A stretch of 63,886 nucleotides of DNA, the filler included, from Coriobacteriales bacterium (GTDB taxonomy: Bacteria; Actinomycetota; Coriobacteriia; Coriobacteriales; UBA8131), in NCBI GenBank assembly GCA_031263105.1. It is 6 parts of 6 records of this genome, joined end to end, with 100 filler letters (N's around TTAATTAATTAA, not from the genome) between each part and the next. Parts side by side here need not be neighbours in the genome. Positions count along the whole stretch, not along the records: positions 29,494 to 48,449 come from JAISGJ010000163.1; 5 more parts are not named here. One strand, written 5' to 3'. Numbering within the stretch: position 1 is the stretch's first letter; each line of letters starts with the position of its first letter. The translations under genes were made by a program, and so were the position numbers. Shown in pieces: positions 29,494 to 47,835 of the stretch. Below the pieces are notes generated by a model, which was given only the letters and a program-made list of their open reading frames with translations, was not told the DNA's origin and did not search any database.

Positions 29494-29579
<86 letters not shown>

Positions 29580-29718
29580 ATCCGGGGGGATAGGAGAGTG
29601 CGTACAGAGGAGTGTACGTATGGTTGGGGACGTGTCTACGCCTGCATTCCATGTCTTCATCCAAGGATGGTTTTCCTGATTCGCTTCAGGAAAGAGGATT
29701 GCTAGAAAGGGAGATCGT

Positions 29719-31608
29719 ATGGGGAATACAACTGTCTCATCACGTCGAAGCGGTGCTGGTCTGAGTGGCCTGGGAATTGGTGGGGGGATACGTGCGGCGT
29801 TGGCCGCGCTCCTGCTGACCCTGATGTTGGTGCCGACCACGGCCTATGCCGCAGAGTCGCAGGCGGTGACCGCCGACAGGGACGGGGTGGTGAACGTCGC
29901 CCTGTATTACATCTCTGACATCGACGGCACTGCTGTAAAGATTCATCTCGGCCCGGGCTTTCTTATCAACGACAGGCACCTGGTGACCAGCTATAACAAC
30001 GTCAATAACGTCCCCAATAACGGGGGCGCTTCCATTCTCGAACAGCGCTTCATGGACGAGTATGGCAGAGCAAAGGGGATTCTCAGCTTTCGCTCGGATC
30101 ACTTGGAAGCAAGGCTCGTTGTCATGCGGGACGTAGAAATCAAGCTGAGTGTGGTCAACCAGTCCGAAGAAATGGGCTTCAGCATCATGAGGCTCGAACA
30201 GCCCATCAGCGGCAGGACCGCGCTTGCGCTCGGTGACAGCGCGACGATTGCGCAGACCGCAGGCGTCTACGCCCTCGGCTTCCCGGTTCTGAGTACGACG
30301 GAGACGTACACCCCCGCTGACGTGACCATCGAGAGCGGTGCAGTTTCCAGGTCTCTCACCACCGTCAGAGGCATCGACTACATCCAGCACGATGCGAAGC
30401 TCCTCTCGGACGACAGCACAAGCGGCCTTCCCATCGGGGGTGGCAGCGACGGCGGCCCCTTGGTCGACGAGAACGGTGCGGTCGTGGGGATAAACACGCC
30501 CGACCGCAACTCCAACACCGACAGCGGCTTTAGCGGCGGCTACTATTACTCGGTCTCCATAAACCAGATCAAGAACGCCCTTGATGCCCTGAACATCAAT
30601 TACGATACCGCTGCGGAGGCCTCCACGCCCCAACCTGCAGGCGGCAGCTCCACCGGTTCCACGCCTGCGGATTCCACAGAGCCCGACACTCCCGTAGAGC
30701 CCGAGCCGATCGACAAGACGCATCTCACGGCGTGCATCGCCGAATTCACGCCGCTTGCGGACGACCTGAACGCCTACACGGAGGAGTCGGCAAGCCGTTT
30801 CACGGGCGCTCTCAATGCGGCAAAGGCGGTCGCAGCCGATGACACGGCGACCCAGAGGGAGGTGGACAGCTCCGTCAGCACGCTCACCGACGCGCGGCAG
30901 GGCCTCACGGAGAAACCCGGGCTGCCGTTGCCGCTCATACTCGGTATCGGGGCGGCTGCTGTGGTCGTCATAGCCGCTGTGGTCGTCATCGTCATCATCA
31001 ACTCGAAGAAGAAGAAGGCGGCGCCTCTGTCTCAGCCCTCCTTCCCCATGGGCGCCGCGCCGCCCTTCGCGGCCGCGCCGCCCTTCGCGGCCGGTGCCGC
31101 TCCTGCGGCGTCTTCCGGGTTCGATGCGCCCGCTGCCGCCCAGCAGCCGCTCTACACCCCCCCTGCCAACACCCCGAGCGGCGCACCTGCGGCACCCCCC
31201 AGCTTTCAGCCGCCCTCCTACGTGCCGCTTGCCTCCGCCATTGACACGGCAGGGGTGGGCGAGACGACCGTGCTCTATCCTGCGGTGGGCGAGACGAGCC
31301 TGCTCGGCGGCGGCCCGGATGTCATCCTGCTGCGGACGTCGAACGGCGAGCGAGTGCGCATAGACCGCGCCGAGTTCGTCATCGGCAAGGAGCGGAGCAA
31401 GGTGAACTACGTGATTCCTGACAACGGGACCATCTCGCGCCGCCATGCGAAGATCACCCAGCACGACGGCCAGTTCTTCATCACCGACCTGGGCACGACC
31501 AACTTCACCTTCGTCAACGGCAAGAAGATCGCGGCGAACATGGAGAGCCCCCTTGTGAACGGCGATAAGGTGACGCTCTCGGACGAAGAGTTCGTTTTCG
31601 AGGCGTAG
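29719..31608 (+). CDS. Membrane protein: signal peptide, trypsin-like domain with degenerate triad, FIVAR-like helical module, TM helix, Pro/Ala linker, C-terminal FHA domain
   Basis: GFLIN..LVTSYNNV, VYALGFP, GSDGGPLVDENGAVVGIN; YTEES...ALNAAKAV..D..ATQ.EVD; IGKE...ISRRHA...DLGTTNFTFVNG. Confidence 0.88.
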   Translation: MGNTTVSSRRSGAGLSGLGIGGGIRAALAALLLTLMLVPTTAYAAESQAVTADRDGVVNVALYYISDIDGTAVKIHLGPGFLINDRHLVTSYNNVNNVPNNGGASILEQRFMDEYGRAKGILSFRSDHLEARLVVMRDVEIKLSVVNQSEEMGFSIMRLEQPISGRTALALGDSATIAQTAGVYALGFPVLSTTETYTPADVTIESGAVSRSLTTVRGIDYIQHDAKLLSDDSTSGLPIGGGSDGGPLVDENGAVVGINTPDRNSNTDSGFSGGYYYSVSINQIKNALDALNINYDTAAEASTPQPAGGSSTGSTPADSTEPDTPVEPEPIDKTHLTACIAEFTPLADDLNAYTEESASRFTGALNAAKAVAADDTATQREVDSSVSTLTDARQGLTEKPGLPLPLILGIGAAAVVVIAAVVVIVIINSKKKKAAPLSQPSFPMGAAPPFAAAPPFAAGAAPAASSGFDAPAAAQQPLYTPPANTPSGAPAAPPSFQPPSYVPLASAIDTAGVGETTVLYPAVGETSLLGGGPDVILLRTSNGERVRIDRAEFVIGKERSKVNYVIPDNGTISRRHAKITQHDGQFFITDLGTTNFTFVNGKKIAANMESPLVNGDKVTLSDEEFVFEA

Positions 31609-31630
31609 GGCCTCGGGCGCAGGGATCCGT

Positions 31631-32398
31631 TTGGACTTTATCAGCACATACCATACCGACGTGGGGATCAAGAAGAAGACGAACCAGGACTCGTTGTTCC
31701 TCGCGGAGGCACAGAGCGCCCAGGGCAAGGTGTTCCTCGCGGTGATATGCGACGGCATGGGAGGGCTCTCCCAGGGCGAGGTGGCAAGCGCCGCGCTGGC
31801 GAGGGCCTTCCAGGACTGGTTCCGGACGGAACTCCCTCACCTGCTCCAGGAGGGCATCGCCTCCGAGGCACTCTGTGCCAGCTGGCACCAGCTCATCAAC
31901 GGGATGAACACGAGGGTGCTGGAGTACAGCGCACTCAACCATGTGAGCCTGGGGACGACGGTCGTTGCGCTCCTGCTTGTGGAAGGACGCTTCTTCATCC
32001 TTAACGTGGGGGACTCGCGTGTCTATCGTTTCTTCGATGCCCTGCTCCAACTGACGAAGGACCAGACGGTGGTTCAGAGCGAGGTCGACAGGGGCCTGCT
32101 CACGCCCGAGCAGGCGCAGCAGGACTCCCGGCGCAACGTGCTGCTCCAGTGCGTGGGCGCAAGCACGGTCGTCGAGCCGGAGTTCACGCAGGGCAGCTTT
32201 GAGCCGGGCTCGCTGTTCATGCTGTGTTCGGACGGCTTCCGGCACCTGATCACGCCTGCTGAGTTCTGGGAGGCGCTCGACCCTGGGCAGGAAGCTGACG
32301 AGCAGCAACTCTATAACAGCATCGTTTATCTGACGGACATGAACAAGTACCGCCGTGAGGAGGACAACATCTCGGCGATCGTGGTGAAGGCGCAGTAG
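31631..32398 (+). CDS. PP2C-family Ser/Thr phosphatase
   Basis: NQDS, CDGMGG, NVGDSRVY, LCSDG, DNIS. Confidence 0.93.
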   Translation: MDFISTYHTDVGIKKKTNQDSLFLAEAQSAQGKVFLAVICDGMGGLSQGEVASAALARAFQDWFRTELPHLLQEGIASEALCASWHQLINGMNTRVLEYSALNHVSLGTTVVALLLVEGRFFILNVGDSRVYRFFDALLQLTKDQTVVQSEVDRGLLTPEQAQQDSRRNVLLQCVGASTVVEPEFTQGSFEPGSLFMLCSDGFRHLITPAEFWEALDPGQEADEQQLYNSIVYLTDMNKYRREEDNISAIVVKAQ

Positions 32399-32511
32399 GC
32401 GCAGGAGGCGCGGCAAGGGACGGGACACGGCGGGATACGGGGGATACAAGCGGGGTACAAGCGGGGCACGGGCGGGACACGGCGAGAGACAGGGACAGGG
32501 CAGGGCGCAAC

Positions 32512-34275
32512 GTGTTGGAAGTCGGCACACTCATAGACGGCAAGTACAAGGTGCTCAACCAGATAGGACGAGGCGGCATGAGCGTCGTCTACCTGGTCAT
32601 GAACGAGCGCGCCAACAAACAGTGGGCGGTCAAGGAGATCCGCAAGGACGGCGTGGACAACTACGAGATCGTCAAGCAGAGCCTCATCGCCGAGACCGAA
32701 TACCTCAAGCGTCTGCACCACGCCAACCTCCCTTCCATCGTCGACGTCATCGATGCCGACGACACCATCCTCATCGTCATGGACTACATCGAGGGCAACT
32801 CCCTGAACCAGGCGCTCAGGGACTACGGGGCCCTGCCTCAGGACGACGTGGTGAAGTGGGCCAAGCAGCTCGCCGACGTGTTGGGCTACCTCCACGCGCG
32901 CAAGCCTCCGATAATCTATAGGGACATGAAGCCCTCCAACGTGATGCTCCAGCCCAACGGGGACGTGAAGATAATCGACTTCGGCACGGCGCGCGAGTTC
33001 AAGGAGGGACGCTCCGACGACACCGTGCCCCTGGGCACCCAGGGCTATGCGGCGCCCGAGCAGTACGGAAAGCACCAGACGGACGCGCGCACCGACATCT
33101 ACAACCTGGGGGCCACGATGTATCACCTGGTCACCGGGCACAACCCCTGCGAGCCGCCCTATGTGATGCATCCCATCCGTCGATGGAACCCCCAGCTCTC
33201 CTCCGGCCTTGAAAGCATCATCCTCAAGTGCACGCAGCGCGACCCCGACGACCGTTATGCCTCCTGCGCCGAGCTGCTGTACGACCTCGAGCACTACCGT
33301 GAGCTGGACTACGAGTACCGCAGGAAGCGCACCGTCCAGTGGCGCCTGTTTTTGGCCGCCGCCGTGCTCGCGCTGCTCAACGCCCTGGGTGCGGGCGGAT
33401 TCGCCTTCGCGGAGCAGGCCCAGTTGCAAAGTAGCTACGACGTTCTGTTGCAGAGGGCCCAAGAGCAGGGCGCGGGCGGCGACGTCTCGACGGTAGGGGA
33501 CTACTACTGGCAGGCCATCATGCTCGACCCTGTCAACGAGAGGGCCTACAACAGCTTCCTCGACCTCGCGAAGCGCGACCAGGCCTTCGGCAGGGACGAG
33601 AACGAGATGCTGCAGAGGATGCTCTCCGAGCGCACCAGCGACGGTGCCGCGACCAACGTAGAGCGCTTCAAGGCCCGCAACCCCGTCGCCTACGACGCCT
33701 TCGCCTACGATTTGGGCATCGCGTACTACTTTGCCTACGACGAGCGGGGCGGAGGCAGCGAGGGCGGGCAGGGCGACAAGGGCAAGGCCGAGGGCTGGCT
33801 CGGCATCGCGGCGGACTCGGAAACGCTCGACGTGCAGAAGAGCGAGCTGGCGCGTCGTCTCGCCTTCATCGCCACGAACTATGAGCGCTTTTTAAACCCC
33901 AGCGGGGGTGGCAAGGGGAGCGTGCTGAACTCCGAAGAGGTCAGCGCCCGTGACATCTGGACGCAGATGGCGGAATTCAGCGACGGCGACCTCGTCGCCA
34001 CGACCGGCTCCACCTTTGTGGCCATCAAGATCTACTCCGAGGTCATCTACCAGATATACGCACACAACAGCCTCTTCGCAGGAGACGGCGTGACCGAGGC
34101 AGAGATGCTCGGGCAGCTCGACAAGGCGGAGCGTGGCCTTGAAGGGCTGAGCACCCAGAGCGCCGACGAGCAGCAGGAGATAGACGCTGCGCTGGTGCAG
34201 GTCGTGTCTGCCCGGACGAACGTGGGGACCGCCTTCAGGAACCGAGGCTTCAACGGGGGAGGGCAGTCCTCGTGA
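32512..34275 (+). CDS. Hanks-type Ser/Thr kinase with TM helix and helical C-terminal domain
   Basis: GRGGMS, AVKE, YRDMKPSN, DFG, GTQGYAAPE; TM LFLAAAVLALLNALGAGGFAFA. Confidence 0.95.
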   Translation: MLEVGTLIDGKYKVLNQIGRGGMSVVYLVMNERANKQWAVKEIRKDGVDNYEIVKQSLIAETEYLKRLHHANLPSIVDVIDADDTILIVMDYIEGNSLNQALRDYGALPQDDVVKWAKQLADVLGYLHARKPPIIYRDMKPSNVMLQPNGDVKIIDFGTAREFKEGRSDDTVPLGTQGYAAPEQYGKHQTDARTDIYNLGATMYHLVTGHNPCEPPYVMHPIRRWNPQLSSGLESIILKCTQRDPDDRYASCAELLYDLEHYRELDYEYRRKRTVQWRLFLAAAVLALLNALGAGGFAFAEQAQLQSSYDVLLQRAQEQGAGGDVSTVGDYYWQAIMLDPVNERAYNSFLDLAKRDQAFGRDENEMLQRMLSERTSDGAATNVERFKARNPVAYDAFAYDLGIAYYFAYDERGGGSEGGQGDKGKAEGWLGIAADSETLDVQKSELARRLAFIATNYERFLNPSGGGKGSVLNSEEVSARDIWTQMAEFSDGDLVATTGSTFVAIKIYSEVIYQIYAHNSLFAGDGVTEAEMLGQLDKAERGLEGLSTQSADEQQEIDAALVQVVSARTNVGTAFRNRGFNGGGQSS

Positions 34276-34706
34276 GCTTGGAGAGGATGCAGGAGACCAT
34301 CGCCCTGCTGCACGGCGGCATCATAGTCTGCATCGTCCTGGCGGTGTTCTTCTTGGGGCTCGCCGTCCTGTTCTTCTTCCGCTTTCACATCCTCCAGATA
34401 ATCCAGCAAAAGACCGGCGTGACGGCCCGGCGGGAGCTTGCCGCCTTCAACGAGCAGAACAGCATGGCCACGGGCCAACTGGCGAGGAGCAACAGCATCG
34501 CGCTGGGGGAGCGGACTCCGGCGGGTCTCGCGGCCGCGCCCTCGAAGGGGCTGGGGAAGCCCCGCTCTCGCCGCCTCGGCTCGAAGAGGCTCAGCGGTGC
34601 TCCGCCACCCGCCCCGCCTCCGCTGCAACCCCCGCCTCCGGTACCGGAGGGGTTCGTACTGATAAAAGAAGCACTCGTCATTCACACCGACGCAGGGATA
34701 TCCTAA
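34272..34706 (+). CDS. Single-TM hypothetical protein
   Basis: GTGA overlap with the kinase stop; N-terminal TM; Pro-rich tract; C-terminal FVLIKEALVIHTD. Confidence 0.75.
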   Translation: MSLERMQETIALLHGGIIVCIVLAVFFLGLAVLFFFRFHILQIIQQKTGVTARRELAAFNEQNSMATGQLARSNSIALGERTPAGLAAAPSKGLGKPRSRRLGSKRLSGAPPPAPPPLQPPPPVPEGFVLIKEALVIHTDAGIS

Positions 34707-34724
34707 AAGAGAGGGGCACCAACG

Positions 34725-37700
34725 ATGAAGAAGCAGACGCAGGAGCCAAGGGAGCGCGTGCGGAACGCACAAGGCGCACAAGGCGCACAAGGCGCACAGG
34801 GTGCGCGGAACGCACGGGCCGTGCGGAACGTGCGGAGGCGGGAGCCGGCCAAGAGGGCGTTGAGCGTGCTCTGCTCCTTGGCGCTCGTTGCCACGCTCGT
34901 CCCCGCGAACCTCGTGTTCGCGACCGACGCGGCCGCGAAGGACACGTCCCCACAGGGAACCGTCTTCGACACGCCGGTTGCGGACAGGGCCGCCCCGGCA
35001 GCGGCGGAGGAGGAAACGGCCCCAGCAGATGAAGTGGCAGAGGATGCGCCCATATCCGAGGATGCCAAATTCCCCTCCCTCGGAGGGGTGCCCCGAAGGG
35101 GCGGGGTGGTTTCCCCCGATGCGGATGCCACACCTGCTCCCGCCACGGAGGCTCTCCCCGATGCGGATTCCGCACCCACTTCGATTCCAGAGGCAACGGA
35201 TGCTGCGTCTGAGACCACCCCGGCGCTTCGCGCCACCCCTCCGGAGGAGGGGAATGTCGATGCCGCAGCATCGAACGCGGCAAAGGACGCAGAGATCCCG
35301 GCAGCAGAGGATGCCCCATTCCCCTCCGGAGGGGCGGCGCAGAGCGCCGGGGTGGTTCTCCCCGACGCGGGCTCCGCACCCGCCTCCGCCTCCACGACCC
35401 AAGGCGCCTCCACCCTCCAAAGCCAGCTCGACGCCCGCTCCTTCATCCCCTCCCGCACCGCCAAGAGCCTGGGCTTCTCAATACAGAGCGCGGAGGACTA
35501 TGAAGTCACGGCAAGCGCGGTGACCGTGAGCACTTCGGTTTCTCCTACCGCTGTCGAGCCCGATATCACCATTACGGCCACGGGCAATCCGTCGGACACG
35601 CTGACGATCCCTTTCACCGACCTTACGACGGCAAACGGGATAGAGCTCGACTGGGATGCGGCAGGCTTCAAAGGGAGTGCTGGGACCGCCTATGAGACGG
35701 GATGGACGTTTGAGGATGCAAGCCCCAGCGGCAAGCAGATCTCATGGTCGGGTGCGACTCTCGGATACGCCCGCTACCAAGTTGACTTGCAGGGCGCCAA
35801 GCTGAAGGTCACCAACAGCGGCGGTGAGTTCGACGCCTATCTCTCCAGCAAAAGCGTCTCATGGATTTCTGGCGTATCTGATTTGGACGCAGCGAGCGTC
35901 AATGATGTACCTGTGCAGTTCGACCTCACCGGCATCTCGGGGGCGGCGACTGCGGTGCTCGCCGACGCTTCCTCCCTATCATACGTCATCAGCAGCACCA
36001 ACTCACTGGATGCCGACATCTCCGTCGTGGTCACAGAAGCCAGCCAAACAAAGCTCGGCATCGTCAAAGTAGAGGGGCAGATGCAGTACGACAGCGGCGG
36101 CGGCAACTGGCAGGACGTCGGCAGCCCAATCCCGTTTGACGTCTCCGGCGCTCCCGCATACGAGGGCTCCGCCTACCTCTTTCCCACATTCGCCGAACTG
36201 GGCACTCTCAGCGACTCGGAAGGACTGACGCTCACAGGGAAGATACCGTCCAGCAACGGCACAGCCTATGATACCAACCCCCCCTCACGGATGGCGGTCA
36301 CCGTGACCTTCGCCGACGGCACGTCCCAGTCCGCTTCCTCCCCAATCACGGGCATCACCGTGACAGACGACACGGCAGCCCCGACGGTGACGTTGGAATT
36401 TTACGCAGGAACACAAAACCCTTCCACTGAATCCTCCTCCTACTACTACACCGCACGGTCTCTGAAGCTCACCATCGACGACAACGGCATCGAGCTTCCT
36501 CCCGTATATCTGGCCTCGACCTATTCTCCTGACAACGCAGGGCTTATCGAGGCAGCCAGCGCGGACGCTGCTTCGGAATGGGAGAAAGACGACGCCACCA
36601 GCACTTCCAGCAAACTGGTCTTCACGATGGAGCTGCCCGAAGGGGTGTACGACTTCGCTACCACCACTGACGGCTTCGGCGATGCTCTGGACGATTATCT
36701 GCTCACGATTACGGATGCGGGCGGGAACACTCCTGCCACAACCGTTTTCAGCGAATCCATCAAAGCCTTCACCGTCGACGACACGCCGCCCACCGCGACC
36801 ATAACCGGTGTCGCAAGCTTGGGCAATGACCTCGAAGAGAACGGCCTTGAGACCGACCGTTCCGTCACGTATGGGGACTCCGGCAAAAGCTCGTCCGTCA
36901 CTCTCGTGGGCACAGACGCAGGCTCGGACGTGTGGAAGTACACATGGGTGCGCCTCTCCGAGGCCGACTATGCGGGCATCAGCGGCGCGATGCCGTTCTC
37001 GGGCCTCGTGAGCAGCCATTCAGGCAGTAGCGACGTGATCGATGCAACGGACGGGAGCTTCGACCCGAACAACGACCTCAAACTTGATCGGGGCGGCGAC
37101 GACCGCTTCGTCTACGTGCTCCAAGTGATGGACAAGGCAGGCAACACCGCCTACGCCATCTCCAACGGCATCATCGTCGATACTGCGCCCCCGAAGATTC
37201 TTGCGGATTCGATTGTGGTCATGGGTACGGAGGCAAACGGTTTCTATACCGGCGACGTAACTGTGGGCTTCCAGGCCTACGACGACGAGCAGGACGCCGC
37301 TACGGGGACGTCTCAAAAGACCGCTTCTGGCTTGGCAGGGGTGGCCTACGAGCTGTATTACCTCGATGCGAACGGATATAGGGTCGGCGGGGTCACCGCG
37401 CCGTTCAGCTCGGGCGATGCCGCACTGACTGCTGCCCATGCTGCTGAGGATCTTAGTGATAACCTTAATCCGACGTGGGATGAGATACAGGAGAGCTGCA
37501 AATCCACTTCCACCGACGCCTGGGAGTACGAGTTCGCCATTTCGGCGGCGGACGACTACGACCTCTACCCCGGGGTCGAGATCGTGCTCACGGCCACCGA
37601 CCGTGCGGGCAACAGCAACGACCCGGTCAACGGTGCCGATGCTGACGATGCCAAGAAGGAAATCAAGATAGACGCCACGAAACCGAAGGTCGAGCTCAGC

Positions 37701-40700
37701 TTCGACGAGAACGACAAGGCGAACACCTCCAGCGGGGTACCGGTGTACAAGCTCGGCCGCACGGCCACCATCACGGTCACCGAGATGAACTTCGATCCCG
37801 ACGGCGCCAATACCTTCGCCGTGCTGTATAAAGCCTACGAACCGGTGTTGTCCACTACAGAAATTGCCTCCATGACACTCAGCGCTACCGATTGGAACTC
37901 TCTCGGCGGCAGCAAGAAGGACGACACCAAGTATCAGGCAACCATCATCTTCCCCGACGGCGACTACCGCTTGGAGGATTTGTGGGTCACCGATGCAGCG
38001 GGCCATAAGACCGACGAGGCGGTGCCTGCGGATTGGACTAGCTCCGACTTCACGCTTGCCTTTGGAACCAAAGACTACGACAACTTCATCGTTGACACCG
38101 CGGCCCCGAAGGTGACGTTGGAATTTGACGCAGGAACACAAAACCCTTCCACTGAATCATCCACCACCTACTACACCAAAAGGACCGCGAAGCTCACCAT
38201 CGACGACGGCATCTCTCCGCTCCCTGACACATATCAGGACAGCGACCTACCCAGCACTGCCCTCATCGAGAAGGCAGGCGCGACTCCTGGTTCGTGGGTT
38301 AAGGACGCTGTCAACAGCACTGCTGAAAAGCTGGTTTTCACGATGGAGTTGCTCGAAGGGAACTACGACTTCACCAACCAAGGCTTCATCGCTGAGGTGG
38401 ACACCTATCTGGCCACCATTGTGGACATAGGCACGAACAGCCCGCTCAGAGCCTCTGACTTCACGTTCACCGCGACCCCCAAAATCTTCACCGTCGACCA
38501 TACGGCCCCCACTTCGGCCATGGACATCGCAGCTTCGGACGATGCTTGGGGCGCTCCTTCTCTTGAGGATGGCATCGCCTACGGGAACGTGGGCCAGACC
38601 TCGACGGCCATCTTCAGGGGCACGGACGAGGACGCGAGCGTGAACTCGGGCGTGTGGAAGTACCGGTACGTGAGGCTCACCCCGGTCGAGTATGCGGCCA
38701 TCAACGGCAGCACGGACTTTGATACCCTTTACACCACTACTGAAAGCAACGACAGCAGCAATGTCGGCACCAAGGACTCGGACCCCCTTGACCCCTTCGA
38801 GGCGACCCAGCCCCCCGACGCCCGGTTCGTCTACGTGCTGCAGGTGCTGGACAAGGCGGGCAACGCCGCCTACTGCATCTCCAGCGGCACCATCGTCGAT
38901 ACGACGGAACCGGCGATTGACACCTCCGATGGCGACAAGTCCATCAAGGTGTTCGCGCCCAACGCGCTTGACGTGGATGACTTCGTCACTGCGGACGCCA
39001 CGGTGAGCTTCAAGGCCTACGACGTGGAGAACGCTGCAACCGGATGGCAGGGCGTCGCAACCGCCTCCGGCCTTGCGAAGGCGGACTGGAAGCTCTACGG
39101 GATCGATGCGGGCGGCAACAGGGTGGGCAATCCGTTCAAGGTGGGCACTGCCGTCTGGGACGCCAACGGCCAGACGGCGCTTGACGCGGGCTCGACATGG
39201 GCCGACATACAGAAAAGCCTCGACACTTCGACCCCTTGGGACTACCACTTCGAGATAGGGAGCCCCCTCAGCGACTACGACCGCTACCCCCAGGTCGAGA
39301 TCGAGGTCACGGCCACCGACCGCGCAGGCAACGAGAGCGCCCCGGTGTCGAGGAAGGTCAGGATAGACGCCACGAAGCCGAAGGTCGAGCTCAGCTTCGA
39401 CGAGAACGACAAGGTGGCCACCTACAGCGGGGTGCCGGTGTACAAGGTCGGCCGCATGGCCACCCTCACCCTCACCGAGCTGCACTTCGACCCCCGCAAG
39501 CCCGCCTCGTACCGCATCGCCTACGACGCGTACAAGCCGATGACGCAGGGCATCGACCCCAACAGGGCACAGCCTGCCGTCAGCGCCTGGACGCTCGTCG
39601 GCGGGGCGGTGGGCAACAAGGACAGCACCACGTACCAAGCCACCGTCACCTTCCCGGACGGCGACTACCATCTGAACAGCCTGTGGGTCGTCGATGAGGC
39701 GGGCCATCGCACGGACGTGGCAGTGCCCGCAGACCTGGCAGGCGGCGACGTCACGCTCGGCACCGATGTCTACGACTTCGTCATCGACACGGTCGAGCCT
39801 GTGCTCGCCCTCTCGTATCCCACGGAGCTTGTCAGCCCCGCCCGCTACGACAAGACCTACTTCCAGGACCGCAAGGCCCGGGTCGTGATAACGGACGAGG
39901 GCGGCTTCAGACTCTCGCCGGATGGCTACACGATAGAGTACCAAAGGGACGGCAAGCCGGTCTTCGCCTCCCTCACGAGGACTGACAACTACACCCTGAG
40001 CTGGGACCTCGACCTCGGCGATGCCGTGCGGTACGACTTCAGCGGCATTACCGTGACGGCCACGGCGCGCGACCGGGCGCACACCGCGCCCGTGGGCGGC
40101 CAGGGCTTCTCCGCATCCGACATCAACGTCTTTGCGGTGGACGGCGTGAGGCCAAGGGGCGACATACGGCTCGACGACGCTTCCATCGCGTCCAACCCCG
40201 CCAGATCGGAGGCCCGCTACGCTGACTCGCGCTCGAAGCAGAGCGTGACCGTCGAGCTTGCAGGCAACGATGCCGAGGGCACCGGCGTGCAGAAGTACGA
40301 GTACTTCCGCGCCACGCCCGAGGAGGTCGAGGCGATACCCGACGACGTCCGCTTCGACGCTCTGGAGGCGCGTTTCTCCAGCACCGCAGTGGCCATGGTT
40401 CTGCCTGCCTCGCTGCCTGCCGCAGAGCGGACGTTCACGAGGAGCGACACCCAGGACAAGAACGACCGCTACGTCTACGTGCTCAAGGTCACGGACATGG
40501 CGGGCAACGCCGACTATTGGGCAAGCAACGGCATCATCACCGACACCTCCGTGCCAGACGTGCCCACCTTCACCTTCACGGGCACGGACCGCACAGGCAA
40601 CGGCATCTTCTCCAGCGACGTGCGCGTGCGTTTCGAGGCCAACGACCGCACGAGGGCGGCTGCGACCGGCAGCGCACAGACGGCTTCCGGCCTCACGGCG

Positions 40701-42716
40701 AACGCGACCTACCAGGTCGAGTACGTGCGTCCCGACGGCTCCACCGAGCCCATCGTCACCGACGGGGTTGCCCGGACGACCTCGGCCGTTCTCAGCGCGA
40801 ACCCCACCTGGGGCGACATACAGACGGATCTCACGGGGACCAAGGAGTTCGGCTTCACCATAGACGGCTCCAACGACCTCTACCGCACCGTCCGGGTGAG
40901 CGCCACCGTGACGGACCGCGCGGGCAACACGCGCACGGGCACGGACACGCTCTCCATCGACACCACGCGCCCCGTGATACGGGTCTCCTACGACAACAAC
41001 GCCGTCGAGAACAGCCGCTACTTCAAGGCGGCGCGCACCGCGACCCTCTCCGTCACCGAGTTGAACTTCGATTCCTCCCGCGTGCAGGTGACAAGCCAGC
41101 GGCAGGCCGCTTGGGGCGCCGCGCTCGGCACGAGCAAGCGCGACACGAGGGCCACGGGCACCGTCGTGTACGCCGACGATGCCGAGTACACTCTTAGCGT
41201 CGCCGCGACGGACAGGGCGGGCAACCTCGCGGTCGTTTCCTACGAGGGGGCCGCGCCGCAGGACTTCGTCGTCGACACGACGATGCCCGTGCTCTCGCTT
41301 GCCTACGACAACAACAATGCGCGCAACGACCGCTACTACAATGCAGCGCGCACGGGGACCCTCACGGTCGTCGAGCAGAACTTCAGCGACGCAGGGGCCG
41401 CCGTGACCGCGACCCGCGACGGCGCGGGCTTCTCCTCGGGCGGCACGTGGTCGTCGGCGGGCACCGTCCATACGAGCAGCATAGGCTTCACGACCGACGG
41501 CGACTACGGCCTCACCGCCGCCTACACCGACCTCGCGGGCAACCCCGCGAACGTGCTGCCGCCCGAGGACTTCGTCGTCGACCTCACGGCCCCCGTCATC
41601 ACCTTCGGCGAGGCCGTGCAGGATCGCACCGCCTATGCGGACGTGGTGACCCCCGAGGTTCTCTTCACCGACCGCAACTACGACAGCACCGGCAAGGCCA
41701 TCACCATCGAGGGCTACAAGAACCCCGAGGTCTCCTTCGGCACGGATGCCAGCACCATAAGCGACGGCGACGCCACGGGCGAGCAGGTGACCGTTGCCGA
41801 TCTTGAGCACACGAGCGCCAACGACGACATATACACGCTGACAGCGACGCTCATGGATCTCGCGGGCAACGAGGCCGAGGAAGGCATCATGTACTCGGTC
41901 AACCGTTACGGCTCGACCTGGCGCATCGAGGGCGCGTCCAAGGACCTCGTCGACGGCCACTACTCCAACGCCTCGCGCGCCTTTGAGATACACGAGGTCA
42001 ACGTCAACGAGGTCGTCTCTCACGAGGCGACGCTCAGCCACAACGGCGACCTCAACAAGCTGGGACAGGAGGAGGGCTACCAGGTGGCGGCCAGCGGCGA
42101 CGAGGCGAGCTGGAAGGAGTACACCTACACCTTCGCAGCGGACAACTTCCAGAACGAGGGCCTGTACGAGCTCACGCTGCTGACGACCGACGCGGCCCAG
42201 AACACCTCTTCGAACGTCTCGCCGCGCGTGGCGGAGAGCGCAGCTCCCGTGAGCTTTGTCATCGACAAGACGGCCCCGAGCGTCGTGATAACCGGTGTCG
42301 AGGCCGGCGCCCAGTACGCCGAGGAGTCCCGGACGGCCCTCATAGACGTCCAAGACAACACGGCCGTCGACAGGATAGACGTCTATCTCAACAACGGCGC
42401 CGCCCCCGTGGCGAGCTACTCGGCCGACGAGATCGAGGGCGCGAAGTCGGAGAGCGGGCAGATACCCTGCGTGATACCGGCTTCCAACGAGCAGCAGAGC
42501 ATCGCGGTCGTTGCCCGGGACGTCGCGGGCAACAGCACCGAGAGCATCGGCGTGCGAGACATATTCGTCAGCCCGACCAACATCTTGATCCTCGGCCTCT
42601 CGGTGCCGCGCGTCGCCGCCGTGGGCGGCGGCATCGGCTTGGGCGCACTCGTCTTGGCGGGGCTGGGTTTCCTGGTAGTGCTGCCCTGGTGGCGCCGCTC
42701 GCGCAAAGAGCTGTAG
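34725..42716 (+). CDS. Giant (2663 aa) Ig-like-repeat surface protein with N-terminal signal and C-terminal TM anchor
   Basis: KRALSVLCSLALVATLVPANLVFA; many DxAGN and (I/V)DxTxP module motifs; C-terminal hydrophobic helix plus WWRRSRK. Confidence 0.9.
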   Translation: MKKQTQEPRERVRNAQGAQGAQGAQGARNARAVRNVRRREPAKRALSVLCSLALVATLVPANLVFATDAAAKDTSPQGTVFDTPVADRAAPAAAEEETAPADEVAEDAPISEDAKFPSLGGVPRRGGVVSPDADATPAPATEALPDADSAPTSIPEATDAASETTPALRATPPEEGNVDAAASNAAKDAEIPAAEDAPFPSGGAAQSAGVVLPDAGSAPASASTTQGASTLQSQLDARSFIPSRTAKSLGFSIQSAEDYEVTASAVTVSTSVSPTAVEPDITITATGNPSDTLTIPFTDLTTANGIELDWDAAGFKGSAGTAYETGWTFEDASPSGKQISWSGATLGYARYQVDLQGAKLKVTNSGGEFDAYLSSKSVSWISGVSDLDAASVNDVPVQFDLTGISGAATAVLADASSLSYVISSTNSLDADISVVVTEASQTKLGIVKVEGQMQYDSGGGNWQDVGSPIPFDVSGAPAYEGSAYLFPTFAELGTLSDSEGLTLTGKIPSSNGTAYDTNPPSRMAVTVTFADGTSQSASSPITGITVTDDTAAPTVTLEFYAGTQNPSTESSSYYYTARSLKLTIDDNGIELPPVYLASTYSPDNAGLIEAASADAASEWEKDDATSTSSKLVFTMELPEGVYDFATTTDGFGDALDDYLLTITDAGGNTPATTVFSESIKAFTVDDTPPTATITGVASLGNDLEENGLETDRSVTYGDSGKSSSVTLVGTDAGSDVWKYTWVRLSEADYAGISGAMPFSGLVSSHSGSSDVIDATDGSFDPNNDLKLDRGGDDRFVYVLQVMDKAGNTAYAISNGIIVDTAPPKILADSIVVMGTEANGFYTGDVTVGFQAYDDEQDAATGTSQKTASGLAGVAYELYYLDANGYRVGGVTAPFSSGDAALTAAHAAEDLSDNLNPTWDEIQESCKSTSTDAWEYEFAISAADDYDLYPGVEIVLTATDRAGNSNDPVNGADADDAKKEIKIDATKPKVELSFDENDKANTSSGVPVYKLGRTATITVTEMNFDPDGANTFAVLYKAYEPVLSTTEIASMTLSATDWNSLGGSKKDDTKYQATIIFPDGDYRLEDLWVTDAAGHKTDEAVPADWTSSDFTLAFGTKDYDNFIVDTAAPKVTLEFDAGTQNPSTESSTTYYTKRTAKLTIDDGISPLPDTYQDSDLPSTALIEKAGATPGSWVKDAVNSTAEKLVFTMELLEGNYDFTNQGFIAEVDTYLATIVDIGTNSPLRASDFTFTATPKIFTVDHTAPTSAMDIAASDDAWGAPSLEDGIAYGNVGQTSTAIFRGTDEDASVNSGVWKYRYVRLTPVEYAAINGSTDFDTLYTTTESNDSSNVGTKDSDPLDPFEATQPPDARFVYVLQVLDKAGNAAYCISSGTIVDTTEPAIDTSDGDKSIKVFAPNALDVDDFVTADATVSFKAYDVENAATGWQGVATASGLAKADWKLYGIDAGGNRVGNPFKVGTAVWDANGQTALDAGSTWADIQKSLDTSTPWDYHFEIGSPLSDYDRYPQVEIEVTATDRAGNESAPVSRKVRIDATKPKVELSFDENDKVATYSGVPVYKVGRMATLTLTELHFDPRKPASYRIAYDAYKPMTQGIDPNRAQPAVSAWTLVGGAVGNKDSTTYQATVTFPDGDYHLNSLWVVDEAGHRTDVAVPADLAGGDVTLGTDVYDFVIDTVEPVLALSYPTELVSPARYDKTYFQDRKARVVITDEGGFRLSPDGYTIEYQRDGKPVFASLTRTDNYTLSWDLDLGDAVRYDFSGITVTATARDRAHTAPVGGQGFSASDINVFAVDGVRPRGDIRLDDASIASNPARSEARYADSRSKQSVTVELAGNDAEGTGVQKYEYFRATPEEVEAIPDDVRFDALEARFSSTAVAMVLPASLPAAERTFTRSDTQDKNDRYVYVLKVTDMAGNADYWASNGIITDTSVPDVPTFTFTGTDRTGNGIFSSDVRVRFEANDRTRAAATGSAQTASGLTANATYQVEYVRPDGSTEPIVTDGVARTTSAVLSANPTWGDIQTDLTGTKEFGFTIDGSNDLYRTVRVSATVTDRAGNTRTGTDTLSIDTTRPVIRVSYDNNAVENSRYFKAARTATLSVTELNFDSSRVQVTSQRQAAWGAALGTSKRDTRATGTVVYADDAEYTLSVAATDRAGNLAVVSYEGAAPQDFVVDTTMPVLSLAYDNNNARNDRYYNAARTGTLTVVEQNFSDAGAAVTATRDGAGFSSGGTWSSAGTVHTSSIGFTTDGDYGLTAAYTDLAGNPANVLPPEDFVVDLTAPVITFGEAVQDRTAYADVVTPEVLFTDRNYDSTGKAITIEGYKNPEVSFGTDASTISDGDATGEQVTVADLEHTSANDDIYTLTATLMDLAGNEAEEGIMYSVNRYGSTWRIEGASKDLVDGHYSNASRAFEIHEVNVNEVVSHEATLSHNGDLNKLGQEEGYQVAASGDEASWKEYTYTFAADNFQNEGLYELTLLTTDAAQNTSSNVSPRVAESAAPVSFVIDKTAPSVVITGVEAGAQYAEESRTALIDVQDNTAVDRIDVYLNNGAAPVASYSADEIEGAKSESGQIPCVIPASNEQQSIAVVARDVAGNSTESIGVRDIFVSPTNILILGLSVPRVAAVGGGIGLGALVLAGLGFLVVLPWWRRSRKEL
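35069..35356. repeat. Three palindromic elements (family B) inserted in frame in the giant CDS
   Basis: ATTCCCCTCC(N3)GGAGGGG-hairpin-GGGGTGGT at 35069-35110 (+), 35214-35255 (-), 35318-35356 (+). Confidence 0.85.
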
Positions 42717-42793
42717 AAAGCGTGGCAGCTTTGGCACAGCGGAGGGTCGGCAGGGGAAGCGCCCCCTGTCGACTCCCCGCAGCTGGATAAGAC

Positions 42794-44812
42794 ATGGGAG
42801 TCCGAGCCGCAAGTGGGTATCCCTTTGAGCTGCTGCAGGAGATCGGTCGCGGTGGGCTGGGTGTGGTATATCTGGCCTACCACCACCGCCTGCAGAAGCA
42901 CGTCGTTCTCAAACGGGTTCCAACGGGGCCTCTGCGGCTGGACAAACTGCGAGTCGAGGTTGACCTCCTCAAGAACCTGCGCCACAGCTACCTGCCGCAG
43001 GTCTACGACTTCATACAGGTGGGCAATGACGTGTTCACCGTCATGGAGCACGTCCAGGGTGTAAGCCTTGCACATTATCTGAGGGAGGGCATCCGTCCGT
43101 CGCAGGCACAGATGATAACGTGGATGTGCCAGCTCGGGGAGGTCCTCGACTATCTCCACTCGTGCGACCCGCCGGTCATCCACAGCGACATCAAGCCGGA
43201 CAACATCATGATAACCCCGCGCGGCGACGTCTGTCTCATTGACTTCAGCATATCTCAGGGCGAGGGATCGACGGCCCTTCTCGGCATCAGCGACCTCTAC
43301 GCCTCTCCGGAGCAGGCGGCCTTGGCCCACGAGGTGCGGATGGGTGCCCGTGCAGGTGCAGGTCAGGACATGTGGGGCGGGGCTGCTGTTTCGCCGCTTC
43401 AGCGGCAGGGCGAGCATTCCCGCCCCATGCGCACCGCCCGCCTGTCTCCCCAGTCGGACATCTACAGCCTTGGTGCGACTTTCTACTGGCTTGTCCTCGG
43501 CATACAGCCGGTTCAGGTCGTCTGCCCCTTGCCTCCGCTGGAGGAGTACGCAGAGGACTACGCGCTCCCGTATGACCGGGCCTTTCTCCGTGTCATCGAC
43601 CAGGCGGTCGGCGCACGGGGCAAGCGCATCACGTCGGCGGTGAGGTTTTTGGAAGTGCTGGGGAACCTCCAGCGCCTTGATGCGCACTACCAATGGAACC
43701 GGCGTTTGCAGTGGGCGACGGGTGCCACATCGGCGCTGCTGCTGCTCGTGGGCTTCCTACTCTCCTTGTACGGATGGTCGTACATGCAGAATGCCGCCTT
43801 CCAGGACACCCTGCGCGAGTTCAGGCAGCTGGTGGCCGTCGGCACCAACGACGCCATCGTCAGCAGGGGCTATCAGGTGCTGAACGACCCCGCCCTCCGC
43901 CCTCTGTTCGAGGAGCGGCCGCAGGACAAGGCGGAGGTGCTGCACACCATGGGGGACTGCTACTTCCAAAACGACGACTACGCCGCCGCGCTGCCGCTGT
44001 ACGCCGAGGCGCTTGACGTGGGGAAGGGCACGCAGGAGGCGGCGGCCTATTATCGCGATTACGCCATAGCGCTTGCTCGCGGGGGGTCTTACGACGAGGC
44101 CCTTGTCGTGCTCTGGGATGCGGAGGCCCGTGGGGTCACGGAGGCCTCGTTGCTGCTTGTCCGAGCCGAGATAGCCTACGCGACGGCATCGCGCACGGGC
44201 GGTACGCGCGATGGGCAGGCTGCGTTCGAGCTCGCCTTCGCGCTTCTTGCAAGAGGGGGCAACGAGCCCGAGCTGGTGCAGCGCGTCCACATCCTCCTCT
44301 CCCAGATATACCGTGAGCGCGGGGACTGGGAGGCCAGCATCGAGAGTCTGAGGAAGGCCAACGCCGCGCTCCCGAGCGCTGTGACGCTGCGCCGCCTGGC
44401 CGATGCCTGCGCACTGTATGCGCCCATGACGACCAGGGAGGGCGAGAAGGAGCGGCTGCTCAAAGAGGCGCGGTCGAACTACGAGGCGTTGTGCGCGCTG
44501 TCTGCCCCCGCGCCGGGCGATCGCCTCAACCTGGCAATCGTCCTGCGCTCGCTGGGCGAGTACCCCACGAGCGAACGGATGCTCAAGGACCTTCTCGCCG
44601 AGGGGCTTGACGACTATCGGGTAGCCATGAACCTCGCCTTCCTCTACGAGATGACCGGCAAGGAGGATGATGCCCTTTCCTTCGGCACATACGCGCGGCG
44701 GGCATACGACAACACTCCGGCCCCAAGCCGGGAGGCGCATGACAGCGCCAATATACAGGCGCTCGACAAGCTGCTCAGGAGGCTGGGCTCGAGGGAGGGG
44801 TCAGATGGATGA
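42794..44812 (+). CDS. Second Ser/Thr kinase (non-RD) with TM helix and TPR-like repeats
   Basis: GRGGLG, VLKR, HSDIKPDN, DFS, YASPE, SDIYSLGAT; TPR-like MGDCYFQNDDYAAA, YAIALARGGSYDEA. Confidence 0.9.
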   Translation: MGVRAASGYPFELLQEIGRGGLGVVYLAYHHRLQKHVVLKRVPTGPLRLDKLRVEVDLLKNLRHSYLPQVYDFIQVGNDVFTVMEHVQGVSLAHYLREGIRPSQAQMITWMCQLGEVLDYLHSCDPPVIHSDIKPDNIMITPRGDVCLIDFSISQGEGSTALLGISDLYASPEQAALAHEVRMGARAGAGQDMWGGAAVSPLQRQGEHSRPMRTARLSPQSDIYSLGATFYWLVLGIQPVQVVCPLPPLEEYAEDYALPYDRAFLRVIDQAVGARGKRITSAVRFLEVLGNLQRLDAHYQWNRRLQWATGATSALLLLVGFLLSLYGWSYMQNAAFQDTLREFRQLVAVGTNDAIVSRGYQVLNDPALRPLFEERPQDKAEVLHTMGDCYFQNDDYAAALPLYAEALDVGKGTQEAAAYYRDYAIALARGGSYDEALVVLWDAEARGVTEASLLLVRAEIAYATASRTGGTRDGQAAFELAFALLARGGNEPELVQRVHILLSQIYRERGDWEASIESLRKANAALPSAVTLRRLADACALYAPMTTREGEKERLLKEARSNYEALCALSAPAPGDRLNLAIVLRSLGEYPTSERMLKDLLAEGLDDYRVAMNLAFLYEMTGKEDDALSFGTYARRAYDNTPAPSREAHDSANIQALDKLLRRLGSREGSDG

Positions 44813-44975
44813 CGGTCTTGCCCTGCTGGTGGCCGGGGTCGTTCTGATGGCGCTTGCCCTTTGCGCCTTTGTGGCGGGGGAGTTCCTGCTCGCCCGGCGT
44901 CAGAGGGCGCTGAGGGAGCGCTACCAGCTGCCATGCGTCGACATGCGGCTCCGACAGGCAGGCAAGGAACGGTAA
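44805..44975 (+). CDS. 56-aa single-TM protein
   Basis: GGAGG RBS, overlap with the kinase end, LALLVAGVVLMALALCAFVAG followed by a basic tail. Confidence 0.65.
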   Translation: MDDGLALLVAGVVLMALALCAFVAGEFLLARRQRALRERYQLPCVDMRLRQAGKER

Positions 44976-45015
44976 GGTAATCAGTTCCCAAGGACAGAGA
45001 GGCCAGGTAGGGACA

Positions 45016-46242
45016 ATGGAGGGCAGCTCGGAGGACAGGCGGAGAAAGACGGTCGTCACCGTCGCGATGGCTGCGCTCATTCTGGTGGTCCTGGCGATTG
45101 TGGGCAGCCTGGTCATCACCAGTTGCGACCTCTCTGTGGACGTAGGCTACGAGGAGCGCCTGCGCCAAGCACAGGTCGCGCTGGACAAAGGGGAGTACGA
45201 GACGGCCATCCTGATATACGAGCAGGCCATCGAGGAGAGGATTGCGGAGCCCGAGGCCTATCTGGGGCTCGCACGGGTCTATCGGATGACCGCGCGGATT
45301 GAGCAGGCGCTGGAGGTGCTCCGGAGGGGGTTCAGGTACACCGGTTCGGATCGCATATCGTGGATGCTGGCGGAGATCGAGCAGATGTGGAAGGATGCCC
45401 AGGCGGCGGACTCGAAGAGAGGCGCAGGAGCGCCCCCGGCGGCGGACGAGGAGCCGCAGGAGGAGCCGGACGAGGAGCTGCAGGAGGACATCCCGTCGCT
45501 GACGCCGCCCTTGTTAAGGATGCCTTCGGCGCCTCGGAGCGTCGGACCCGGGATGATGCTCGAATCCAAGGTGACGCTGTACGGAACGGTCGTCGATGCG
45601 GCAACCGGCGAGGGCTTGGCCTCGGCAACGTTGGACATGCGTTCCGCCTCCTCCCTCGCCAGCAGCTCCCTCGCCTCGGCCGAAACCGATCGTGACGGCA
45701 CCTACTCCGTCCTCCTTGAGCAGGGGGAATACTGGGTGACGGTCACCAAGGACGGCTACCTCCAGGAGGACTTCAGGGTCGCGCTTGCAGATTCGATCGT
45801 AGAGCAGCAGGAGGACTTTGTGGTGACCTCGGAGCTTGCAGTGGACGAGATCCGCATCGTGCTGGCCTGGGGTCCCTCTCCCAGCGATCTCGACGCGCAC
45901 TTGACGGGCTCGCTTGACAGCGGCACCAGCGTCGGGGTGGATTTCCGCAACAAGGAGGCTTATGACGCTGAGGGCAACCTTGTGGCCGACCTTGATCTGG
46001 ACGACACCAACGGCGAAGGCCCCGAGACCCTCACCCTGCACGACCCCGTCGGGAGTTTCGAGTACTACGTGCAGGACTACACCTTCAGCGGCACCATGTC
46101 CGACTCGCACGCGCAGGTGAAGATATACGTTAGGGGCGGCGCACCCATAGTGGTGAACGTGCCCGAGGGCATCCACAACGAGTGGAGCGTCTGCCGCATA
46201 GAGCACGGCAGGGTCTCTGTGACCAACACTGCACGAGACTGA
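45016..46242 (+). CDS. Membrane-anchored TPR + carboxypeptidase-regulatory-like + DUF2135/YfaP-like protein
   Basis: EAYLGLARVY; GTVVDAATGEGL...TDRDGTY...KDGY; IRIVLAWG..PSDLDAHL...DLDDTNGEGPETLTL. Confidence 0.82.
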   Translation: MEGSSEDRRRKTVVTVAMAALILVVLAIVGSLVITSCDLSVDVGYEERLRQAQVALDKGEYETAILIYEQAIEERIAEPEAYLGLARVYRMTARIEQALEVLRRGFRYTGSDRISWMLAEIEQMWKDAQAADSKRGAGAPPAADEEPQEEPDEELQEDIPSLTPPLLRMPSAPRSVGPGMMLESKVTLYGTVVDAATGEGLASATLDMRSASSLASSSLASAETDRDGTYSVLLEQGEYWVTVTKDGYLQEDFRVALADSIVEQQEDFVVTSELAVDEIRIVLAWGPSPSDLDAHLTGSLDSGTSVGVDFRNKEAYDAEGNLVADLDLDDTNGEGPETLTLHDPVGSFEYYVQDYTFSGTMSDSHAQVKIYVRGGAPIVVNVPEGIHNEWSVCRIEHGRVSVTNTARD

Positions 46243-46272
46243 CAGCTGGCCCATGCAGGAGCAGGCAGCACT

Positions 46273-46475: not shown

Positions 46476-46479
46476 GGCG

Positions 46480-47122: not shown

Positions 47123-47149
47123 CCTGTACTCCAATCTGACACTACATAC

Positions 47150-47184
47150 GGTGCCATTATAGCAAGGCACCCATCGGCGTGCAA
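47150..47184 (-). promoter_or_regulatory. hicAB sigma70 promoter with an operator palindrome over the -10
   Basis: TTGCAC-17-TATAAT; GGTGCC (47150-47155) / GGCACC (47166-47171). Confidence 0.75.
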
Positions 47185-47685: not shown

Positions 47686-47769
47686 CAAACCGTCCCCCTT
47701 TCTTGAGGGCGTTGCACCAGTGCTCGACAGAAGCCGCGCTCCTACGACAAATACCCCGCGTTCTTGTCT

Positions 47770-47835
47770 CGGATTACCAATCTTTGAATATGCGGCAGAG
47801 ATAAGGATGTTGGTATCGATGAGAACTTTCTTCAT
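47770..47835 (-). pseudogene. Truncated PIN toxin
   Basis: MKKVLIDTNILISAAYSKIGNP coupled to the antitoxin, then similarity is lost. Confidence 0.7.

Follow-up and report, generated by a model that had tools for sequence, protein, structure and literature searches.

An eight-gene Ser/Thr phospho-signalling cluster of a Coriobacteriales bacterium as a probable part of a T7SSd/T7SSe-type type VII secretion system

In a stretch of 63,886 nucleotides (the window) from the metagenome-assembled genome (MAG) of a Coriobacteriales bacterium (GCA_031263105.1), eight co-directional genes, here called g1 to g8, combine Ser/Thr kinases, a PP2C phosphatase and an FHA protein with a giant surface protein. 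We consider it probable (about 0.8) that this cluster forms the regulatory, membrane-embedded half of a type VII secretion system (T7SS) of the T7SSd/T7SSe type. Gene content, homology, synteny with the ATPase EssC and motif conservation, all directly observed, underlie this reading, and the cluster itself is real and conserved. The whole of it lies on contig C190 (window 29494-48449; 18,956 bp) of a MAG of 250 contigs that is 86% complete with 6.5% contamination. An original prediction, made from the sequence alone, had listed the eight genes, and all eight plus-strand open reading frames are found where it placed them; its remark that gene ends overlap is true of two pairs: g3 and g4 share 4 nt, g6 and g7 share 8 nt. 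Nearly all of its domain calls score above Pfam curated cut-offs, which we used for domain matches, the exceptions being a sub-threshold FIVAR domain in g1 and a DUF2135 domain in g8 that Pfam does not see. Its transmembrane (TM) topologies agree with the hydrophobic segments, and sequence motifs confirm g3 as an RD kinase (YRD) and g6 as a non-RD kinase (HSD, DFS). Also sound is its view that a giant surface protein and TPR domains outside the cell are coupled to a kinase/PP2C/FHA set; the TPR-type modules on g3, g6 and g8 all face the cell exterior. Genes g1 to g4 and g8 are single-copy in the MAG assembly.

Synteny carries much of the argument. Taxonomic placement puts the relatives G504, G005 and G018 with the MAG in a single family of the order to which the other genomes searched also belong, and in G504 a single contig holds orthologues of g1 (46%), g2 (66%), g3 (71%), g4 (43%) and g5 (45%; 1893 amino acids, aa) together with a ubiquitin-like small protein, a DUF6382-only protein and EssC. 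In the Lachnospira MAG G434, one contig carries g1, a PP2C gene, g3 (54%), a 219-aa TM protein resembling TsxH and a giant gene that runs to the contig end; a second contig carries the end of the giant gene, a g6 orthologue, two FHA proteins and an EssC that scores 1125 bits against TIGR03928, the EssC model (cut-off 778.4 bits). G018 has g1-g2-g3 at a contig end, the end of g6 followed by g7 and g8 on another contig, and two partial EssC genes elsewhere. Among the five carriers of g1, EssC lies in the same locus in two and elsewhere in the assembly in two, and was not found in one. The genes before g1 are unrelated wherever the upstream side is visible (G018, G434 and G005), so g1 is the first gene of the cluster. 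Eight further EssC loci in the family, several of them on short contigs, have matches to the giant protein (three loci), g3-like kinases (two) and a 97-aa protein discussed below (five). The arrangement extends beyond the family: all three loci from two other Coriobacteriales families run FHA protein, PP2C, g3-like kinase and TsxI-like giant, with a first gene that encodes DUF6382 plus FHA in both loci checked (G334 and G300), a single-TM gene after the kinase in both examined (the same two), and WXG100-EssC following in two of the three. Conserved synteny with other genomes, which the original prediction had named as a test, is thus present, also beside EssC. The prediction's "self-contained receptor complex" does not survive. 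Its other option, control of an export or conflict apparatus, and the link to EssC/type VII loci that it named are borne out by the orthologous clusters that directly adjoin EssC in G504 and the Lachnospira MAG and by the EssC and WXG100 genes of contig C183. As a separate observation, the G334 locus contains, between the giant gene and WXG100-EssC (L165:15345-16865), a gene for one protein that combines a zinc ribbon, several TM segments (DUF4013-like) and an FHA domain, a further membrane FHA component that C190 does not encode.

The MAG has a T7SS locus of its own. The statement that no EssC or WXG100 gene is on the contig is right for the 19-kb C190, but the same MAG has both on C183, as the suggested search of its remaining contigs reveals. 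This locus (G000:C183:5209-21617; L119, L120) lies next to the ribosomal genes rplJ and rplL, and its EssC scores 833.8 bits against TIGR03928 and 21.7 bits for FHA. Four WXG100-type genes, at 32.4-51.7 bits against a Pfam cut-off of 27.3, correspond to TsxA; none is on C190. Also encoded on C183 are a TPR protein of 462 aa, two proteins of ~300 aa that are paralogues of each other, and a g5 paralogue of 1333 aa (32% identical over ~800 aa). A 97-aa protein of this locus (L119:17296-17589) and its seven relatives (L142, L155, L157, L158, L160, L161, L164) give ubiquitin-like beta-grasp models with a pLDDT of 87, and the model of the 97-aa protein matches ubiquitin-like chains and the ubiquitin-like domain of EccD from ESX-5 (TMq 0.72, E 1.6e-5). 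On these models it is a predicted counterpart, outside the window, of the ubiquitin-like TseB; Pfam YukD has no significant match in the MAG (16.3 bits on an unrelated contig). A gene for the 97-aa ubiquitin-like protein adjoins EssC or the giant gene at six of ten family EssC loci, those of C183 and G504 included, and also in G300.

Several observations weigh against assigning the cluster to a secretion system. In the MAG itself, EssC is on another contig than the cluster and adjacency is not demonstrable; with 6.5% contamination, the two contigs, C190 and C183, may stem from more than one strain. G005 has g1 to g5, and EssC was not found in its 90%-complete assembly. Within the family, g1 is present in 4 of 34 genomes, as against 10 of 34 with EssC past the cut-off, so g1 and EssC are not obligately linked. 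Read by eye, the N-terminal FHA stretch of the C183 EssC has GARH where SxxH is usual, which makes its reading as a phosphothreonine binder uncertain, and the resemblance to the T7SSd/e reference parts rests on published descriptions (PMC11217815), not on Olsenella uli sequences. Might the cluster instead be a free-standing envelope receptor or adhesin, with the immunoglobulin (Ig)-like giant as adhesin or antenna and signalling directed to non-T7SS targets such as transcription or the cell envelope? The lack of an EssC or WXG100 gene on C190, the gene content of G005, and the rarity of g6 to g8, which are followed by toxin-antitoxin genes in an island-like arrangement, would all suit such a receptor. 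We nevertheless judge it improbable: g1 to g5 run on to EssC within one contig in G504 and over a contig break in G434; TsxI-like and g3-like genes repeatedly flank EssC in the family and the order; and the published list of T7SSd/e components fits (PMC11217815).

That fit to a T7SSd/T7SSe-type machine can be followed part by part. The product of g2 (31631-32398; 255 aa) is a PP2C/PPM phosphatase (PP2C_2, 48.3 bits), Stp1-like at 158 bits, below the equivalog cut-off of 230. By eye it contains the aspartate-bearing PP2C stretches NQDS, DGMGG, GDSR, SDG and EDN, which we take to be the named motifs of this family. Orthologues are present in G504, G005, G018, G434, G300, G334 and G071, as befits TseF, the PPM phosphatase, and g2 would be the TsxF of this system. 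The product of g3 (32512-34275; 587 aa) is an RD Ser/Thr kinase (Pkinase, 174.4 bits) with all kinase catalytic motifs and a TM segment at ~aa 277-300. Its 287-aa ectodomain gives an AlphaFold2 model of 13 helices (pLDDT 85.8) that forms a TPR-like, all-helical solenoid. This corresponds to the description of TsxD, a cytoplasmic Ser/Thr kinase with a TM segment and an extensively helical C-terminal region, the likeness being one of description and not of O. uli TsdD sequence; we propose that g3 is TsxD, an active membrane kinase with a helical TPR-like ectodomain. Similar kinases occur at EssC loci in G504, G489, G465, G300 and G334, and the closest relative outside the family by path length is that of the Lachnospira MAG (54% identity). 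Structure searches for homology of the g3 ectodomain to EssB gave weak, generic TPR matches only (Foldseek best E 0.04; VIA-align best Z 11.5, under the helical-repeat caution level); EssB chains are not among the 50 best rows of either program, which is evidence neither way. Two features of the G504 contig may be recorded here. The open frame of its g3 orthologue (L142:2763-4553) begins just 74 residues before the HRD motif, which points to a stop or frameshift within the N-lobe of the kinase and so to either a pseudogene or a fault of assembly. GC content is 55.6% over the contig's first 20 kb (L142; the cluster and ~3.5 kb of neighbouring genes) and 61.1% over the other 12.9 kb (L143).

The small protein encoded by g4 (34272-34706; 144 aa) matches no Pfam family and consists of an N-terminal TM segment and a Pro/Ala-rich, disordered tail; a ..[IV]HT[DENR].. 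motif at the tail's end is conserved in all six orthologues. It answers to the description of TsxH, a protein with a single TM segment and a short, unstructured stretch in the cytoplasm, whose gene follows that of the kinase; orthologues hold the same position in five other loci, and g4 would be the TsxH of the cluster. The TsxH-like tails of G300 (L163:10162-11205) and G334 (L165:10579-11454) carry about ten acidic SE(A/N/S)PTxLL repeats. Judged by their sequences, the HT motif and these SEAPTGLL-type repeats may be candidate phosphothreonine docking sites, perhaps multi-site arrays.

The giant product of g5 (34725-42716; 2663 aa; Big_13, Big_3_3 and Big_3_2) has a Sec-type signal at its N terminus, Ig-like domains, and a TM segment with a basic tail at its C terminus. 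This agrees with the description of TsxI, a large protein that has a Sec signal, Ig-like domains and a C-terminal TM segment. Its membrane-proximal C-terminal 600-800 aa are 27-45% identical to giants encoded beside EssC (G504, G002, G465, G020, G300, G334 and C183). Self-BLAST found no internal repeats at E <= 1e-5, and a sequence search of the PDB returned 0 matches. The most fitting role for the giant "adhesin" of the original prediction is that of TsxI in a secretion machine, Sec-exported, C-terminally anchored and, we propose, wall-spanning in the manner of EsaA.

The protein that opens the cluster, g1 (29719-31608; 629 aa), is of a more unusual build: a signal peptide, a Trypsin_2-like domain at aa 79-258 (43.6 bits), a FIVAR-like domain at aa 332-396 (23.1 bits, under the Pfam cut-off of 29.2), a TM segment at ~aa 403-427, a linker, and an FHA domain at aa 554-620 (55.4 bits). 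In the protease domain, the catalytic His column holds N, and GSDGG stands where relatives have GNSGG, with D in the Ser column. The catalytic His and Ser are kept in all 13 g1 homologues compared, unlike the window copy, whose protease domain, as read from these residues, is catalytically degenerate and inactive; a scaffold role is therefore likely for this copy. The cytoplasmic, Pro/Ala-rich linker carries two invariant ETxxL motifs (aa 515-519 and 525-529). One to three copies precede the FHA domain in 15 of 15 full-length proteins of the g1 family (GETTVL/GETSLL), and six motif positions are invariant in a 12-sequence alignment. In GarA, an ETTS motif ahead of the FHA domain is a known phospho-switch (PMC5448819); like GarA and OdhI, the g1 family has an E-T-T/S motif in an unstructured stretch N-terminal to FHA, the difference being that GarA is a small soluble metabolic regulator and g1 a bitopic membrane protein whose phosphorylation is putative. 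Sequence searches with g1 returned 36 matches, two of them named "Coriobacteriales bacterium" by NCBI. Other Coriobacteriales T7SS loci have a DUF6382-FHA (TsxJ-type) gene in the position of g1, and g1 itself has an FHA domain without DUF6382, where TseJ is cytoplasmic with an N-terminal DUF6382 and carries its FHA domain at the C terminus. The mycosin MycP of T7SSa is a membrane-anchored, extracytoplasmic, subtilisin-like serine protease of a T7SS locus, without FHA. Likewise, g1 is a membrane-anchored, extracytoplasmic protease-type protein of a T7SS-type locus; it differs in being trypsin/HtrA-like with an FHA domain, and in the window copy in lacking the catalytic His and Ser. MycP is among the proteins named in the Introduction of PMC11217815.

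The last three genes are a lineage-specific add-on. The second kinase, g6 (42794-44812; 672 aa; Pkinase, 107.6 bits, plus TPR families), is non-RD, with HSD and DFS motifs and with the Lys, the catalytic Asp and the Asn retained. Alignment places an insertion of ~25-35 aa after the DFS motif relative to g3-type kinases, and the TM segment (~aa 305-330) is followed by a TPR ectodomain. In a kinase tree the g6 clade stands apart from g3 (100/100), and HSD and DF[SN] are kept in all three of its members. Branching within the TsxD clade is without resolution, so that a "transfer from Lachnospiraceae" draws on identity and path length only. Tandem kinase-like arrays of another sort lie near an FHA/PP2C block (L022) in the Lachnoclostridium MAG G435, one of six matches (C2:8005-22070) and one of four (C1:20230-30229), and constitute a different multi-kinase system. 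The TPR part of g6 has one clear orthologue (54% identity), and homologues of g6 (P0052), g1 (P0015, 50%) and g8 (P0002, 49%) share a single JGI contig of 32,875 bp. Gene g7 (44805-44975; 56 aa) matches no Pfam family and encodes a single TM segment with a basic tail; its orthologue lies between the g6 and g8 genes in G018, and it is TsxK/TseK-like by description only. The product of g8 (45016-46242; 408 aa; TPR_19 and CarboxypepD_reg, 41 bits) has an N-terminal TM segment, TPR, an acidic linker, CarboxypepD_reg and a C-terminal beta domain. Pfam gives no DUF2135 match in that C-terminus at E <= 0.5; two ESM Atlas structure rows for the aligned part of g8 name PF09906, and we call the domain DUF2135-like by these Atlas rows only. 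This protein is very rare, with 14 matches in 5.8 billion clusters; just two of them, at 76% and 49% identity, are both close and nearly complete in length. In a class-wide search, 6 of 401 genomes had some match, and besides the protein's own MAG coverage was confined to residues 189-406; a scan of metagenome contigs with the g8 alignment gave nine loci, none with the full protein or the cluster.

How might these parts work together? We infer a route in which phosphorylation would gate secretion. The ectodomains and the giant protein would signal the state of the cell surface; g3, and perhaps g6, would then phosphorylate threonines, the candidates being the ETxxL pair of g1 (GarA-like) and the g4 tail; the FHA domains of g1 and EssC would bind these marks, and the secretion machine would be assembled or fired; g2 would reset the system. 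In this scheme g1, bitopic, with an extracellular HtrA/trypsin-like and a cytoplasmic FHA domain, would substitute for the cytoplasmic DUF6382-FHA protein TsxJ, and contig C183 would supply the EssC/TsxC ATPase, the WXG100 proteins and a ubiquitin-like TsxB. A further idea, to which we assign rather low odds, is that g1 is a new kind of T7SS gate, in which an extracellular (pseudo)protease/FIVAR part is joined to an ETxxL-ETxxL-FHA switch and which, with the RD kinase TsxD, g6, g8 and TsxI, would let a surface event, such as contact, damage to the wall or the product of a competitor, drive assembly or firing of EssC in a phospho-dependent way.

The same parts could be arranged into threat sensing of the Esr type, in which an Ig-repeat sensor activates a kinase/phosphatase pair and a phosphorylated FHA output protein mainly induces defence genes, T7SS genes included, so that the cluster would not be a structural part of the machine. 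There is experimental precedent in a 2026 preprint on Schaalia (PMC13622651), where Esx genes are induced through a surface sensor with Ig repeats, a paired kinase and phosphatase, and an FHA protein as output, and the GarA-like layout of ETxxL and FHA in g1 is typical of an output switch. However, the MoxR, vWA and beta-propeller domains were not found in the cluster, the eight proteins have no DNA-binding domain, g5 is C-terminally membrane-anchored as TsdI is, and a gene order conserved with EssC suggests stoichiometric components; we hold this explanation to be slightly less credible than the free-standing receptor. A housekeeping operon for cell wall or division, of the PknB/Stp1/FhaA-FhaB kind, is very improbable, for although g2 and g3 match the NCBIfam models Stp1 (158 bits) and PknB_PASTA_kin (209.8 bits), these scores are far under the cut-offs of 230 and 450, PASTA domains and FtsW/PBP genes are absent, the cluster is patchy (4 of 34 family genomes), and the same MAG has another PP2C/kinase pair on contig C2.

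Some properties of the source DNA bear on how the locus is viewed. The window is made of six contigs of one MAG (C184, C186, C188, C190, C192 and C201), with N runs around an ttaattaattaa linker between them; carAB and other apparent flanks are therefore unrelated contigs, the true neighbours of the cluster are not shown, and any neighbourhood read across the N spacers is artificial. Contig C190 begins in a poly-C run (29494..29580, without strand), 225 bp before g1, and the upstream context of g1 is missing on it. The contig ends in G/C-rich low-complexity repeats (window 48200-48449), where summed contig depth is ~1685 as against ~25 over the genes; both ends are likely sequencing or assembly artefacts. 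The assignment of C190 to its host rests on MAG binning. One public run (X1), labelled termite gut metagenome, contains the C190 stretch, and its Logan contigs are broken downstream of g8 at ~46.42, 47.85, 47.95 and 48.23 kb, with no readable link between C190 and C183. Downstream of g8, on the minus strand and outside the system, are a HicB gene (46480-46857), a weak HicA-like gene (46838-47218) and a MazE/AbrB-type antitoxin gene (47832..48095); the assembly graph branches at ~47832, and a plus-strand fragment at ~47343-47700 resembles the start of an AAA-type ATPase gene. A scan of C190 for consensus promoters and terminators gave no excess over shuffled sequence (3 vs 2.6; 10 vs 10.3). Elsewhere in the window, contig C192 (48679-53314) encodes a 410-aa protein with a weak PQQ/beta-propeller match and then one of 1128 aa that has choline-binding/glucan-binding repeats and weakly matches C92 amidase.

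For the question of how the kinases, phosphatases and FHA domains of T7SSd/e systems act, the locus offers concrete, testable features. With its relatives, it extends the published picture by a protease-FHA protein that is tethered to the membrane and has an invariant Thr motif like that of GarA, by a second kinase clade of the non-RD type and by the conserved C-terminal HT motif of TsxH. Coriobacteriales loci further contribute a phosphatase and a ubiquitin-like protein, neither of which PMC11217815 reports for T7SSd. The findings also bear on the annotation of many gut and termite-gut MAGs of Coriobacteriia and Lachnospiraceae that carry such genes.

Known secretion systems offer several points of comparison. 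Relative to classical T7SSb, the topologies are analogous (g3 and g6 to EssB, g5 to EsaA, g4 to EssA), and EssC likewise bears FHA domains; the difference is that the active site of g3 is intact. A search of the MAG (86% complete) for T7SSb EssB/YukC (PF10140) at E <= 1 came back empty, g3 and g6 matching Pkinase instead, and no matches to the EsaA and EssA families were found. On the less likely reading of g1 as a T7SS gate, the contact between the EssB pseudokinase and the FHA domains of EssC in T7SSb would be a fossil of live signalling. By published description, TsjD of the Clostridium T7SSj is, like g6, a kinase with a C-terminal TPR domain; T7SSj is without TsxH, however, and g6 is a second kinase beside the TsxD type, non-RD and with DF[SN] (PMC11217815). 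The threonine-phosphorylation pathway of the type VI secretion system, cited in the Discussion of the same paper, has a membrane kinase, a PP2C phosphatase and an FHA protein. It too places a writer/eraser/reader triad within a secretion locus, and there FHA docks on a phosphorylated membrane component and activates firing; the machine is an unrelated one, of the Gram-negative envelope and without a giant Ig protein. The Esr-type pathway of Schaalia is a functional analogue built of other parts, namely MoxR, vWA and beta-propeller proteins (PMC13622651).

The nearest relatives are the systems of Garrett, Higginson & Palmer (2024; PMC11217815), who defined T7SSd in Olsenella (Coriobacteriia; O. 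uli as reference) and T7SSe in Bacillota from gene neighbourhoods, by bioinformatics. Among the literature searched, the terms T7SSd and T7SSe are used only in that paper, and experimental characterisation of any such system was not found. The original prediction's statement that no characterised system of this composition exists in Coriobacteriia needs amending, since T7SSd of Olsenella was already defined, if bioinformatically; measured against the prediction's other proviso, an exact match to a characterised T7SS locus, the cluster is a variant and not an exact match, of a kind that is already described, though not experimentally. The main text of PMC11217815 gives T7SSd/e as comprising a kinase, a single-TM protein, a giant Sec/Ig/TM protein, a PPM phosphatase and FHA proteins, and names no trypsin, TPR or CarboxypepD protein for either. 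The trypsin-like/FIVAR-TM-FHA g1, the non-RD TPR kinase g6, the 56-aa TM protein g7 and the rare TM-TPR-CarboxypepD_reg protein g8 are parts beyond that text. T7SSd shares the host class Coriobacteriia, an FHA-bearing EssC and WXG100 proteins with this genome, and by the published descriptions TsdD equals g3, TsdH g4 and TsdI g5. Its five core parts are listed without a phosphatase or FHA protein, and a ubiquitin-like protein is stated to be absent; here, in contrast, the cluster includes a PP2C and an FHA protein, the ubiquitin-like 97-aa protein is at EssC loci of the family, g5 has 2663 aa as against 1654 aa, and EssC is on a separate contig. T7SSe, which adds A2, B, F, J and K and is stated to be confined to Bacillota (PMC11217815), differs in its host, binned here as Coriobacteriales, in having DUF6382 where g1 has a secreted trypsin-like/FIVAR ectodomain and a TM segment, and in that g6 and g8 are outside the main text. 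Its parts A, B, C, D, F, H, I, J and K, with J being DUF6382+FHA, match the MAG's family together with the other Coriobacteriales loci. As phosphatase, FHA protein and ubiquitin-like protein are all found in Coriobacteriales loci, these loci look T7SSe-like by content; the gate reading of g1, at its rather low odds, would also give termite-gut Coriobacteriales a T7SSe-type system, possibly by inter-phylum transfer, despite its supposed restriction to Bacillota.

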